DNA from: Candidatus Kaiserbacteria bacterium
GTDB lineage: Bacteria > Patescibacteriota > Minisyncoccia > Phycocordibacterales > Phycocordibacteraceae
Reading direction: 5' to 3'
DNA length: 64,000 nt
NCBI GenBank assembly: GCA_023269035.1
Contig: JAHFMJ010000002.1
Location: 12,671-76,670, forward strand
Shown here: positions 22,972 through 39,018 of the stretch, in pieces
Numbering within the stretch: the first letter of the stretch is position 1
How the letters are laid out: every line of letters starts with the position of its first letter
Translations under genes and position numbers: made by a program
Notes under the pieces: model-generated
Seen by the model: the letters and a program-made list of their open reading frames with translations, nothing else
What the model was told of the DNA's origin: nothing
Databases searched by the model: none

Positions 22972-23024
22972 ACACATCACAAAGAGAACACCGAGCATAA
23001 TTAAGTAAACGTGAAATAACGTTT

Positions 23025-26390
<3,366 letters not shown>

Positions 26391-26443
26391 TATAATTATG
26401 CTCGGTGTTCTCGGTGTGATGTGTTGATACGTTGAGTGTTCAG

Positions 26444-26553
26444 TTCTGGTGGCTTGTCAGTGGGGTCATACCTGTTCCCATTCCGAACACAGAAGTCAAG
26501 CCCACGAGAGCCGATGGTACTCCGCAAGGGGGAGAGTAGGTAGTCGCCAGAAC
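26444..26553 (+). rRNA. rrf: 5S ribosomal RNA
   Basis: UCUGGUGGC…CCGAACACAGAAGUCAAGCCCACGAGAGCCGAUGGUACU…GAGAGUAGGUAGUCGCCAGAA, with helix I pairing at both ends. Confidence 0.85.
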
Positions 26554-35014: not shown

Positions 35015-35698
35015 TTATTCAATTTTCGTCCCGACGAAAGATTTTCCTTCGAGGTAGTTGGTTACTTCGTCCAGCTTCGAGCCATTGATAATGGCTACTT
35101 CAAGGCCAAGCGCTTCCGCTTCTTTTGCGGCTATTGGGTCGAAGGGGGAGGAGAGGCCCGGGTCCCATTTCTCCGGCAAGAGTTTGCGGAACTCTGGCCA
35201 AGTGATTTTTTCTATTGCTGTGGCGGTTGGGTCCTTCTTAGGGTCGGCAGTGTAAGCGTAGTCGATGTTGGAAAGGTTGATGACTTTTTTCGCCCCCACG
35301 TTCTTTGCAAGGAGCACGGCATCGTAGTCGGTGCTCCAGCCCGGCTTCCACCCTGCGGCGATGACTATTTTGTGTGTCGTTGGTACCGCCTCGGTTGGGT
35401 CGGTGTTGATGATCGGGTGTGCCTGTTCGAAAAATATTGAACGGAGGAGATGCGCGTTGAGCCGCGTGGCGTGGATGCCCAGCCAGTCGAGGTCGTCACG
35501 CGTAAGTGGCGTTACTTCATTTGCCGCGTCCTGATAGCGGCGGGCGGTTTTGCCCCCGCCCGTGATGATGATAAACGAGGCTCCTTTCTCGATGTGCGAG
35601 AGGACAAAAACTTTCAGTGCTTTAAGAAAGTTCGTATCGATGGCGTCTGGGACGATGAGGGAACCCCCCACGGAAATGACCAGTGTTTGCTTGTCCAT
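35015..35698 (-). CDS. pyrH: UMP kinase-like amino-acid-kinase family protein (archaeal-type length)
   Basis: 227 aa. N-terminal LVISVGGSLIV…, then IITGGGKTAR… and VINLSNIDYAYTADP. These are aspartate/glutamate/uridylate kinase fold signatures. Confidence 0.65.
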   Translation of the reverse strand: MDKQTLVISVGGSLIVPDAIDTNFLKALKVFVLSHIEKGASFIIITGGGKTARRYQDAANEVTPLTRDDLDWLGIHATRLNAHLLRSIFFEQAHPIINTDPTEAVPTTHKIVIAAGWKPGWSTDYDAVLLAKNVGAKKVINLSNIDYAYTADPKKDPTATAIEKITWPEFRKLLPEKWDPGLSSPFDPIAAKEAEALGLEVAIINGSKLDEVTNYLEGKSFVGTKIE

Positions 35699-35746: not shown

Positions 35747-36043
35747 GCCCTTTACGCTTGTCTCACGGTAAGCGTCGCTTTAACATCACTATGACTCACT
35801 TCATTCAGTAACCTACCGATCGAAGAGACGTCTGTGTGATGCCGAGGCAAAAGCTTCGGCTTTTTCAATCCCGTGCGCTCGTTGACAACTGAATAACGAA
35901 AGATGCAATCACAAACAAACCAGTCTAAGAAACTAATCCCGACGTAAAAAGTCGGGACCCCGACCTAGGCGTCGGGGGAGCTATTCAATTTCTTCTGTTC
36001 CGACTATCGATCTCGTGCCGCCCAATTGGAGGCATGAGATCTT

Positions 36044-37498
36044 AACTGAGAGTTTGATCCTAGCTCAGGGTGAATGCTGGCGGCGTGGATAAGGCATGCA
36101 AGTCGAACGGGTTTAGACCCGTGGCAGACGAGGTAGTAACACGTAGGAACGTACCCCAAAGTCGGGCATATTCCGTCGAAAGACGGTGCAATTCCCGATA
36201 GTCTCTAAGGAGTAAAGATTTATCGCTTTGGGAGCGGCCTGCGTAATATCAGCTAGTTGGTAGGGTAATGGCCTACCAAGGCTATGACGTTTAGGGGAGC
36301 TGAGAGGCTGACCCCCACCGATGGAACTGAGATACGGTCCTTACTCCTACGGGAGGCCGCAGTCGAGAATCTTCCGCAATGGACGAAAGTCTGACGGAGC
36401 GACGCCGCGTGATGGATGAAGTCCTTCGGGACGTAAACATCTTTTATGAGGGATGAAGTTTTGACAGTACCTCATGAATAAGGGGCTCCTAACTCTGTGC
36501 CAGCAGGAGCGGTAATACAGAGGCCCCAAGCATTACCCGGAATCATTGGGCGTAAAGGGTGCGTAGGTGGCGTTGTTAGTCCTTTCTTAAATTCTCCGTG
36601 CTCAACACGGAGGCTCGAAGGGAAACGGCAATGCTCGAGGATGTACGAGGTACGTGGAACTCATGGTGTAGGGGTGAAATCCGTTGATATCATGGGGAAC
36701 ACCACAGGCGAAGGCAGCGTACTGGGACATTCCTGACACTGAGGCACGAAAGCGTGGGTAGCGAATGGGATTAGATACCCCAGTAGTCCACGCCCTAAAC
36801 CATGTTCTCTAGCTATAAGGAGTATCGACCCTCTTTGTGGCGAAGCTAACGCGTTAAGAGAACCGCCTGGGTAGTACGAGCGCAAGCTTAAAACTCAAAG
36901 GAATAGACGGGAATTCGCACAAGCGGTGGATCATGTGGCTCAATTCGTAGGTAAGCGAAGAACCTTACCAGGGCTAGAAACCTAGCTGCACGCCTCGGGA
37001 AACCGAGGAAGCCTTCGAGGGTGCTAGGCAGGTGATGCATGGTCGTCGTCAGTTCGTGGCTTGAGCTGTTCCCTTAAGTGGGGAAACGAACGCAACCCCC
37101 GTTGTCTGTTTTATATGTCAGGCAAGACAGCTCCCTCACGGGAGAGGAAGGAGGGGATGACGCCAGATCAGCATGTCCCTCTGATGCCCTGGGCTGCACA
37201 CGTGATACAATGGGCGCGACAAAAGGATGCAATACGGTAACGTGGAGCAAATCCCAAAACGCGTCCTCAGTACGGATAGAGGTCTGCAACTCGACCTCTT
37301 GAAGCTGGAATCGCTAGTAATCGTAGGTCAGCCATACTACGGTGAATACGTTCTCGAATTTTGTACTCACCGCCCGTCAACTCAAGGGAGCCGGGAATAC
37401 CCGACGCCCGCGTTTATCGCGGTCCACGGTAAGTTCGGTAACAGGGAGTAAGTCGTAACAAGGCACGGGTAGCGGAAGCTGCTCGTGGAACAATTCCA
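36044..37498 (+). rRNA. rrs: 16S ribosomal RNA (divergent, CPR-like; 3' end approximate)
   Basis: It opens with AGAGUUUGAUCCUAGCUCAG…CAUGCAAGUCGAACGG. The internal conserved regions are recognisable but carry mismatches to universal sites: GTGCCAGCAGGAGCGGTAA versus the 515F consensus, GGATTAGATACCCCAGTAGTCC versus the 806R consensus, and TGTACTCACCGCCCGTCA. Helix 45 is intact (CACGGGUAGC-GGAA-GCUGCUCGUG). About 1455 nt. Confidence 0.85.
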
Positions 37499-37676
37499 TG
37501 CGGAAAACATCTCTCCGAGATTCGTCTCGAAGGATTTATCCGGTCGATTGCCGAAAGGCAGAGTGATGATGTATGACTCTAAACAACATCCGGCACGCAG
37601 ATTGCCGAAACTGCGATAGGCGGAACAGAAGAAAGGGAAGAGCTCTTGGTCACTCTGGTTTGGAAATTCCAGGGAT

Positions 37677-37997
37677 TTACTCGTCTATTTCAGTGTATTT
37701 GATGCGAGGACAATCGGAATGGTAGTGCTTACCATGGTCATCCTCGACGGGGATATTTTTAGTATCGTAAAGCTTGAGTTCGTACTCGTCTATGACGTAG
37801 CTGTTTATCCATTTCTTTAATCCAAAGATCGTATGGCGGCATGACGGACTATCGCAATAGACAGCTGTCTTGTCCCTGCCCTGTTCATCTTTCCCGTGCT
37901 TCCTTTCGGAAACGCGGACTATGTCAGGGCGCTCGTGGCCTGATGCGAATCTCGCATTCATTTTCAGCATAATAACTTCAAAATCATCTTTTGTCAA
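37677..37997 (-). CDS. hypothetical small Cys/His-rich protein in the AT-rich 16S-tRNA spacer
   Basis: 106 aa (…CDSPSCRHT…HGKHYHSDCP…) in a low-GC context between the 16S 3' end and tRNA-Ile. No recognised family. Confidence 0.35.
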   Translation of the reverse strand: MTKDDFEVIMLKMNARFASGHERPDIVRVSERKHGKDEQGRDKTAVYCDSPSCRHTIFGLKKWINSYVIDEYELKLYDTKNIPVEDDHGKHYHSDCPRIKYTEIDE

Positions 37998-38147
37998 AGA
38001 GCTTTTTCTTTGTTTTTAAGGCCTTATTTTGCTAATATCACAGCACGCAGGAAAGAGTATGGCGAGTGTAAACATCGGGCTGCGCCCTCGTTTTCGCTCG
38101 CTGCGCTCCGGAAGAATGAAAGCCAGCTTTCATTCTCTCCCTCGCTT

Positions 38148-38222
38148 GCGAGCGTAGTTCAGTGGTAGAACGCTGTCCTGATAAGACAGAGGTCGAAGGT
38201 TCGATTCCTTCCGCTCGCACCA
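38148..38222 (+). tRNA. tRNA-Ile (anticodon GAU), CCA encoded
   Basis: Cloverleaf: acceptor GCGAGCG/CGCUCGC, D-arm GUUC-AGUGGUA-GAAC, anticodon stem CUGUC/GACAG with loop CUGAUAA, T-arm GAAGG-UUCGAUU-CCUUC, discriminator A, then CCA. Confidence 0.9.
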
Positions 38223-38224
38223 AT

Positions 38225-38250
38225 AGCCGGCCTACGCCGGCTTTTTGTAT
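38225..38250 (+). terminator. rho-independent terminator after tRNA-Ile
   Basis: agccggc-ctac-gccggct followed by TTTTTG. Confidence 0.5.
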
Positions 38251-38365
38251 GCGAGCGAGTACGCCAACTGCTTGGCGTACGTGAAGGAATCGAAGACCTT
38301 TGCGATGTTTACGAGGAACATTGTTTCGAGAAAACCGCAAAGGTATACTGCTCCTGTAAGGAGAG

Positions 38366-38381
38366 TTTCCTTCCGCTCGCA
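38366..38381 (+). repeat. exact 16-nt direct repeat of the tRNA-Ile 3' end (TTCCTTCCGCTCGCAC), att-like scar
   Basis: Identical to 38205-38220 (T-arm 3' half plus acceptor 3' strand of tRNA-Ile). It lies 145 nt downstream and abuts the ATG of the next gene. Confidence 0.7.
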
Positions 38382-38383
38382 CA

Positions 38384-39018
38384 TGAAAATCACGAAGTTT
38401 GGGCACAGTTGCCTCCTTGTCGAAGAAAACGGAGTTCGTATTTTAGTTGATCCCGGCGTTTACTCGACGGCTCAAAATGAGCTGAAAAATATCGATGCCG
38501 TGCTCATCACCCATGAGCATCAGGATCATGTCGACATCGCTTCACTGAAGACCGTTTTGGGGAATAACGCTGGAGCGAGGGTGATTACGAATGGAAGCGT
38601 CGCGGATATTTTTGTCAAAGAGGGAATCAAGGTCGACCTTGTCGAGGATGGTGCAAGTACGGACGTAAAAGGAGTAACGATAGAAGGGGTGGGGAAAGAG
38701 CACGCGCTCATCCACTCATCAGTGCCACGTATAAAAAACGTCGGCTACTTCATCGCCGGACGTTTTTTCTACCCTGGCGATGCGTTGACCATTCCCGGCA
38801 GACCGGTGGAAATCCTTGCGATGCCGACCGCCGCACCGTGGGGGAAGGTTTCCGAATTTCTCGACTATGCTATTGCCGTAAAACCGAAAGTCTGTTTCCC
38901 TGTTCACGACGCTATCCTCAAAGACCCCGCCTTCGGCAATCGCTGGCCGTCCCTCGTCCTCCCGCCCGCTGGCATCTCGTTCCAGATCCTTGAGTTAGGG
39001 AAGGAATACGAGTTTTGA
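38384..39018 (+). CDS. MBL-fold metallo-hydrolase (UPF0173-like)
   Basis: MKITKFGHSCLLVEENGVRILVDPG… and the HxHxDH motif (ITHEHQDHVD). The start was trimmed to the ATG at 38384. Confidence 0.75.

Follow-up and report, generated by a model that had tools for sequence, protein, structure and literature searches.

A hairpin-rich element at the 3′ end of a Patescibacteria tRNA-Ile gene, and its apparent relatives at other tRNAs

Direct repeats of a tRNA 3′ end are the textbook scars of DNA integration. Islands that tyrosine integrases direct to tRNA genes are flanked by attL and attR repeats of the tRNA 3′ end, the crossover falling in the T-loop or the anticodon loop. Elements of this kind, which integrate into tRNA genes, are reportedly treated by, for example, Williams (2002) in Nucleic Acids Res. 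The arrangement described here lies at a tRNA-Ile gene within a 64-kb stretch of Patescibacteria DNA, which we refer to as ‘the window’. Like the tRNA-targeting islands, it has a repeat extending from the T-loop as far as the tRNA 3′ end, a tRNA apparently regenerated by the insert, an original end apparently displaced, and the possibility of tandem accretion. Unlike them, it has neither integrase nor cargo, only 146 nt between its repeats, an inverted copy of the tRNA end, and cores that recur at different tRNAs. Set against the definition of that class, then, the flanking tRNA 3′-end repeat and the intact tRNA at one junction are present, and no integrase gene or remnant was found between the repeats or among 26 ORFs scanned across the window.

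Several other described systems come close in one respect or another. CIMEs, known from Streptococcus, are att-flanked derivatives of ICEs that have no integrase. Some recombination sites act as folded single strands: the attP(+) hairpins of CTX-phi and the IMEX elements, which XerCD uses at dif, and the attC sites of integrons. Repeats of the MITE, REP and PATE types have fixed terminal repeats and make short target duplications or none. And among the t-elements of plant mitochondria, and in the tRNA punctuation of animal mitochondria, cuts by RNases P and Z define mRNA ends and yield leaderless mRNAs. (On these, see also PMC3790967.)

The present element is like the CIMEs in being non-autonomous, presumably mobilised in trans, and bounded by att-like repeats at the end of a conserved gene. 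CIMEs, however, are kilobases long, descend from identifiable ICEs and carry no target-mimicking hairpin, whereas no viral parent was found here. Its inverted target copy recalls the folded single-strand sites: as with CTX-phi attP and attC, the folded form of an imperfect palindrome can resemble the target duplex, folding favours one of the two strands, and arrays could arise by successive insertions. The target here is the T-arm and acceptor region of a tRNA rather than dif or attI, and the likeness is one of analogy only. MITE, REP and PATE repeats are similarly small, non-coding, hairpin-rich and multi-copy, but the terminal helix of our element comes from local tRNA sequence and differs from tRNA to tRNA, and its duplication is 16-19 nt. 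With t-elements and tRNA punctuation it shares an acceptor/T-like helix adjoining an AUG, in a genome without Shine-Dalgarno (SD)-led initiation and with real tRNAs adjoining ORFs in relatives. It departs from t-elements in that its putative tRNA mimic has no T-loop, and in that no genes follow the other family members; the recognisable tRNA-like fold of a t-element, an acceptor stem plus a T-arm with its T-loop, is not found in it. Full-text searches of the literature returned no description of such elements, of bacterial leaderless genes adjoining tRNAs, or of anti-SD loss in this group, an absence that is not proof of novelty. What is apparently undescribed is a 146-nt non-coding insert with a closing helix built from, and tracking, the host tRNA, and with hairpin modules common to copies at other tRNAs.

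The tRNA-Ile locus and its duplicated end

The tRNA-Ile(GAT) gene, with its CCA encoded, occupies positions 38148-38222 of the + strand (ARAGORN; Rfam tRNA model, 77.1 bits), 650 nt downstream of the 16S gene. An extended -10-like promoter, TGCTAATAT (38030-38038, + strand), aligns with TGCTAGTAT in a related contig, L165, and the same motif precedes the tRNA-Ile of a second relative, L164. The next gene, also on the + strand (38383-39018) and outside the element, encodes an MBL-fold hydrolase of 211 aa (PF13483). Its start is ATG 38383: 211 aa is the standard length in about 120 homologs, M1 is invariant among them, and the N-terminus MKITKFGH is common to them. The nearest homologs are just 64-66% identical. 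The possibility that this protein is RNase Z was considered and rejected, as matches were faint and sub-threshold only; it is instead a hydrolase of the PF13483, or UPF0173-like, kind.

There are exactly two occurrences of the 16-mer TTCCTTCCGCTCGCAC in the window, on the + strand at 38205-38220 (copy 1) and at 38367-38382 (copy 2), with a gap of 146 nt (38221-38366) between. Copy 1 comprises the last 2 nt of the T-loop, the 3′ strands of the T-stem and acceptor stem, the discriminator (A38219) and the first C of CCA. In copy 2, A38381 is the equivalent of the discriminator; C38382 follows and then, immediately, the ATG of the MBL gene. When mismatches are allowed, the similarity of the two copies extends to 21 of 25 positions. 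Exact direct 16-mers are rare in the window. There are just two pairs, the other 16.8 kb apart, compared with expectations of about 0.5 pairs at any distance and about 0.003 within 200 nt. The exact 16-nt duplication of the tRNA-Ile end claimed in the preliminary description is therefore real, and its second copy does adjoin the MBL start codon. The coordinates given for copy 1 were right; those given for copy 2 (38366-38381) have to be corrected as above, and the gap from 145 to 146 nt.

That description also saw nothing between the copies but a terminator and a hairpin with a 7-bp stem. This was incomplete, for the interval also contains reverse-complement tRNA segments, a 9-bp hairpin and two further hairpins, all on the + strand. 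The terminator (38225-38246), found by terminator scan, is AGCCGGC-CTAC-GCCGGCT plus a T-tract: a 7-bp stem, six of its pairs GC, and then TTTTT. Inverted repeats show that it caps a long imperfect palindrome extending through the tRNA 3′ part. Beyond it comes the anti-acceptor segment TGCGAGCG (38250-38257), the complement of the acceptor 3′ strand plus discriminator; it complements CGCTCGCA in both copies, and with copy 2 forms helix P1. A perfect 9-bp hairpin, P2 (38259-38280), is inserted at the junction of the acceptor and T-stem complements, and equivalents of unrelated sequence occur in the kindred elements of contigs L018 and L185 (next section). The anti-T segment GAAGGAATCGAA (38283-38294), which appears both as an inverted repeat and in the fold, is complementary at 12/12 positions to the T-loop and T-stem 3′ strand of the tRNA (38200-38211), and pairs over 7 bp with copy 2 as helix P1b. 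Next is the M3/P3 hairpin module (38297-38343), whose core GCGATGTTT...AAAACCGC (38302-38338) also occurs in the L018 and L186 elements. Last is the P4 hairpin, ACTG-CTCC-TGTAA-GGAG (38347-38363), separated from copy 2 by 3 nt; this motif is found across the family and shows compensatory changes.

Positions 38250-38382 fold at -59.5 kcal/mol (z -6.7), copy 2 pairing with both anti segments and closing a bundle of three hairpins. The result has an acceptor-like helix, with a multi-branch in place of the T-loop. When the tRNA is included, the fold reaches -156.7 kcal/mol (z -8.4), and the anti segments can take up the 3′ part of the tRNA while copy 2 pairs with its 5′ part. Just such an arrangement would be expected of a 162-nt insertion into the T-loop that brought a new 3′ end with it. 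A search of positions 38223-38420 against Rfam 15 at E<=10 gave sub-threshold chance matches only, none to the tRNA clan, and blastn detected no further copies of the insert in the window or in the loci that we collected. A decayed tRNA or tmRNA in the interval was rejected, the relaxed, intron, tmRNA and mitochondrial modes of ARAGORN all coming back empty.

Two contigs, L164 and L165 (GCA_964531135.1), share with the window the same unusual 16S tail and the same neighbourhood of 16S, tRNA-Ile, MBL and glycosylase genes. The order in L165 is 16S end, spacer, tRNA-Ile, MBL, a 176-aa ORF, 3-methyladenine glycosylase and tRNA-Leu(CAG); the tRNA-Ile discriminator is followed by CAC and then by the ATG of a 60-aa ORF that overlaps the MBL ATG. 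In L164 the 16S end and a spacer again lead to tRNA-Ile; 3 nt on from the tRNA stands the ATG of a Cu-oxidase_4 gene, with a 103-aa ORF and then MBL beyond it. The downstream ORFs at these uninterrupted junctions thus differ from the window's. Neither contig contains a second copy of the tRNA-Ile end, and since both show the junction ‘tRNA-Ile end | ATG’ without it, this junction is probably ancestral to the clade. Because the tRNA-Ile end adjoins the ATG of the next ORF in both, just as copy 2 adjoins that of the MBL gene, copy 2 looks like the displaced original 3′ end, and copy 1, with CCA and terminator, like the inserted one. Conservation of the second copy in relatives, named beforehand as something that would speak against integration, was not found; L165 is without it. 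A conserved leader of the MBL gene was likewise rejected: regions upstream of the gene at about 230 homolog loci are unrelated, and the L165 spacer does not align with that of the window and is unstructured (z -0.03). At one locus, L122, a real tRNA-Thr precedes the MBL gene, and the geometry there (discriminator, C, ATG) is identical to that of copy 2. Three other retrieved assemblies of the strain are identical at the site, all with the insert, and so present no insert-free allele at this tRNA-Ile. Samples in which the strain is present include ERZ27297344, ERZ27280176 and SRR14366769.

The surroundings have features of their own. The rRNA genes are unlinked: 23S (23043-26375) and 5S (26445-26552) are followed by 9.5 kb of protein genes, and then by 16S (36042-37500). 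The 23S gene exceeds model length by about 400 nt and so carries an insertion, and inverted repeats flank both 23S (22984-23003 and 26393-26412) and 16S (35989-36002 and 37621-37634), presumably as processing stems. The UMP kinase gene (35015-35698, - strand) is of archaeal type, scoring 183 bits with TIGR02076 versus 45.6 bits with the bacterial model. A 5′ leader of about 100 nt (38045-38147) precedes the tRNA-Ile; it is structured (z -3.2), absent in L165 and partly common to L164, and includes a perfect 11-bp hairpin (38113-38136), and a segment, GTAAACATCG (38068-38077), that is complementary to the M3 motif at 38303-38312. The spacer between 16S and tRNA-Ile holds, on the - strand, a Cys/His-rich 94-aa ORF (37677-37997, ATG 37961) without a Pfam match, preceded by a near-consensus promoter (TTGACA-17-TATTAT) with its -10 box ending 7 nt before the ATG. 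At the same place L164 and L165 have unrelated small ORFs on the opposite strand. The earlier suggestion that this 650-nt stretch is foreign is thus borne out as to its variability between relatives, but nothing links the stretch to the repeat. Two independent megahit assemblies of the same strain stop at 38028, just upstream of the tRNA promoter, and a Logan contig stops inside the tRNA-Ile at 38183, which suggests strain variation, or repeats, upstream.

Kindred elements at other tRNAs

The same order of parts occurs downstream of tRNA-Gly(GCC) in L018, from another Patescibacteria MAG: terminator, acceptor complement (GCAGCCA), perfect 10-bp hairpin, GAGGAGAATCGAA, inner hairpins, and the copy CGATTCTCCCTGGtTGCAC. 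This element carries in addition a second anti segment (13/13, GGGAGAATCGAAC), and folds with the same topology as the window's (z -5.5). Three relatives of the L018 locus, L185, L186 and L188, were reached by way of an adjacent HTH protein. L185 and L186 contain variants of the element in which the anti-T segment and the displaced copy both change with the T-stem of the local tRNA (CTCCC / CTCTT / ACCCC). The tRNA-Gly of L188, by contrast, is directly followed by ACATATGTTT, which is the flank 3′ of the displaced copy in L018; because of this match, over the 26 nt of flank that L188 provides, L188 is taken to be an empty tRNA-Gly site. The comparison of relatives that the preliminary description proposed therefore did yield an occupied and an empty site, at tRNA-Gly, but no integrase island at tRNA-Ile. 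At the start of both L018 and L186, another tRNA is accompanied by further copies of the element, some in tandem; one ends in ...GGGTGCACCA and a terminator.

Two hairpin motifs unite these copies. P4, in the form ACTG-N4-TGTAA-N4′, occurs at five distinct places in the 2.07 Mb scanned, where chance would give about 0.16; each of the five falls within such an element, and four of them directly precede a displaced tRNA copy. Its pairing is consistent throughout: 20/20 pair cells are standard, three of the four pairs show compensatory changes, a G.U pair is conserved, and the covariation score is 0.95 versus 0.20 in shuffles (equalled in 0/500). M3 (GCGATGTTT...AAAACYGC) is common to the window, L018 and L186, the last with two occurrences; in the first two of these it sits 7 nt past the anti-T segment. 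Six elements were folded, with z between -5.2 and -7.7 for all. The + strand, which has more G.U pairs, folds better than the - strand in five of the six, an asymmetry that suggests a nucleic acid acting as a single strand, either RNA or + strand DNA, and not a duplex site for protein binding.

The evidence for the family comes from about seven copies on four contigs, reached by a biased sampling of neighbourhoods; a broad, loosely constrained search for the architecture gave too much noise to be used. Rfam, at E<=0.1, produced chance matches only on the L018, L185 and L186 elements, and the family module GCCCGATTGAGCWGGATT matched only coding sequence when compared with viral sequences. 

Some further arrangements of tRNA ends came to light in these contigs. 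In L186, M3 recurs at 2040-2190 together with a long hairpin, modules that have homologues within the L018 and L185 elements; they come after a displaced tRNA-Gly copy and its terminator, and no tRNA copy ends them. On the - strand of L142, the stretch 3783-3640 holds a tRNA-Arg(TCT) and, after a gap of 27 nt, an incomplete second copy that covers the anticodon stem to the 3′ end but has another acceptor strand; in the stretch 2636-2400, a tRNA-Leu(CAG) is followed by a segment resembling a T-arm and acceptor and, later, by its complement. The L142 arrangements may be further kinds of tRNA-end rearrangement.

Translation signals and genes adjoining tRNAs

The 3′ tail of the 16S gene (37487-37500) reads GGAACAATTCCATG instead of GGATCACCTCCTT, and is identical in L164 (1-35) and L165 (1-47); given this tail, the CCUCC of the anti-SD sequence is absent. 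SD-like motifs precede only 1 of 35 gene starts, versus a background of 12%. At 10 of the 35, versus a background of 3.3%, a TAnnnT box ends 5-9 nt ahead of the ATG, as in promoters of the leaderless type, and this points to leaderless mRNAs being widespread in this genome. Examples of the box in the window include those at 661, 21376, 35698 (-), 37961 (-) and 61629, and in many CPR and actinobacterial loci the MBL homologs are preceded by such boxes too.

ORFs that begin at tRNA ends are also common. Among the 48 distinct tRNAs in the loci, 13 have an ATG-ORF of at least 60 aa that starts between -1 and +6 nt from the tRNA end, and in seven of these 13 cases the ORF is not an MBL gene. The frequency suggests that mRNAs may be released by tRNA 3′ processing, as they are in mitochondria. 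Such tRNA 3′ ends were noted in L085, L086, L100, L102, L118, L121, L122, L127, L158, L164, L165 and L168; twice, the A of CCA also serves as the first base of the ATG.

Origin and possible role of the element

Starting from what is observed (the repeat, the structure, the common architecture and motifs, the element segments that match the local tRNA, the tandem copies and the one empty site), we hold with moderate confidence that the window contains a 162-bp hairpin element inserted in the 3′ end of the tRNA-Ile gene, and that it belongs to a family of non-coding tRNA-end elements of Patescibacteria. The unit would have entered the T-loop/3′ end of the gene, and would consist of 16 nt of tRNA 3′ end, the rest of CCA, the terminator, and about 115 nt of hairpins. 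Such an insert brings with it a replacement 3′ end, with the result that the tRNA-Ile is intact and now has a terminator of its own. The original 3′ end, copy 2, would have been displaced 162 nt downstream, and it still adjoins the MBL start because ORFs of this lineage often begin 0-6 nt after a tRNA. Each family element carries, in inverted form, the acceptor and T-arm 3′ strands of its own tRNA, which close onto the displaced end as a long helix, and also the conserved hairpins M3 and P4, the latter at the right junction.

The insertion may have come about by site-specific recombination in the T-loop, through a recombinase that we infer to be encoded elsewhere and to act in trans. The enzyme's substrate might be a single strand folded into a hairpin that resembles the double-stranded end of the tRNA gene. 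A crossover in the T-loop, regeneration of the target, and a conserved hairpin at the right junction all fit site-specific recombination, and regeneration of the target would account for the tandem copies as well. No recombinase was found near any copy of the element; RecA was the only one among the 26 ORFs scanned in the window. The integration scar proposed in the preliminary description thus survives in its geometry, a regenerated tRNA and a displaced end, but not in its integrase. Two other features sit less easily with conventional integration. The anti-T segment matches five T-loop nucleotides (TTCGA) that lie outside the direct repeat, which a simple crossover model does not predict; and homologous cores at different tRNAs, with ends matched to each, are unusual and count against a sequence-specific integrase.

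The alternative that survives best, although we regard it as rather unlikely, is that the element acts as an RNA. The helix formed by P1 stacked on P1b, which finishes with the discriminator A and a C immediately ahead of the AUG, would mimic an acceptor/T helix, and RNase Z or RNase P would cut there and release a leaderless MBL mRNA. More broadly, the family could comprise tRNA-like RNA genes that co-evolve with their tRNA, which is compatible with an insertional origin. The genome offers a suitable setting for this, with no SD usage, a 16S tail without CCUCC, frequent leaderless-type -10 boxes, and ORFs placed at -1 to +6 nt from the ends of so many tRNAs. The tRNA-Thr of L122 has the very geometry of copy 2, and the MBL AUG stands at the foot of the -59.5 kcal/mol structure without a -10 box 6-7 nt upstream. 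The compensatory changes in P4, its conserved G.U pair and the better folding of the + strand also speak for an RNA. Against these points, a strong terminator separates the tRNA promoter from the element, models of tRNA and of other RNA families fail to match, the mimic is without a T-loop, and a -10-like TATACT (38344-38349) could provide a 27-nt leader without any processing. Nor can mRNA release be the general role of the family, as no gene directly follows the displaced copy in L018, L185 or L186.

An immobile, local rearrangement is less probable again, and we find it doubtful. Template switching or fold-back at a highly transcribed tRNA gene would have produced a direct-inverted-direct triplication, kept thereafter by selection or gene conversion. 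The order of copy 1, inverted copy and copy 2 does amount to a long imperfect palindrome centred on the terminator loop, in which 38200-38231 pairs with 38236-38294 once P2 is removed, and the tRNA-derived segments of each element match its own tRNA. It leaves unexplained, however, why the non-tRNA modules M3 and P4 are common to different tRNAs and lineages, and why some copies are in tandem.

The deleted island that the preliminary description favoured fares worse, and must be considered markedly improbable. It makes of the repeats the attL/attR scar of a large integrase-bearing island, its interior since deleted and 146 nt of junk left behind. The direct repeat from T-loop to tRNA 3′ end is the classical signature of a tyrosine integrase, and the uninterrupted junction in relatives suits this explanation too. 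The interval, though, is no junk. It is highly ordered (z -6.7) and contains tRNA-derived inverted segments; it holds neither an integrase remnant nor a fragment of an ORF; and it is a compact structured unit whose architecture and two hairpin motifs are shared with equally small elements at other tRNAs. The core, moreover, is in no viral att site: in IMG/VR the 16-mer matched one phage tRNA-Ile and coding regions. Lastly, a chance repeat, or convergence with regulatory sequence of the MBL gene, is very unlikely, for while short motifs like GCGAGCG/CGCTCGC do recur locally (38092-38101, and the 5′ leader in L164), the roughly 0.003 exact pairs expected within 200 nt exclude chance, and no comparable leader exists at the roughly 230 MBL homolog loci.

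Returning to the inserted hairpin element, we put forward only tentatively, as a possibility that falls short of probable, the wider proposal that it represents an undescribed class: small, non-coding elements in Patescibacteria, inserting at tRNA 3′ ends or built onto them, which regenerate the tRNA, provide it with a terminator and fold into a bundle of hairpins whose closing helix mimics the acceptor/T-arm of the host tRNA and co-varies with it. They would recombine as folded single strands, like CTX-phi or attC sites, or act as tRNA-like RNAs, in SD-less lineages with tRNA-punctuated leaderless expression, the bacterial equivalent of tRNA punctuation in mitochondria. If the family is real and mobile, it would be a new kind of miniature tRNA-targeting element whose ends imitate their target. 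It would then bear on the use of tRNA structure in site-specific recombination, on the evolution of tRNA loci in ultra-small genomes, and on why metagenome assemblies break at tRNAs. If the element acts as RNA, it would be a new tRNA mimic. And the altered 16S tail, the absent SD motifs, the leaderless promoters and the ORFs at tRNA 3′ ends lead to the hypothesis that, in bacteria too, tRNA processing may make translatable leaderless mRNAs.
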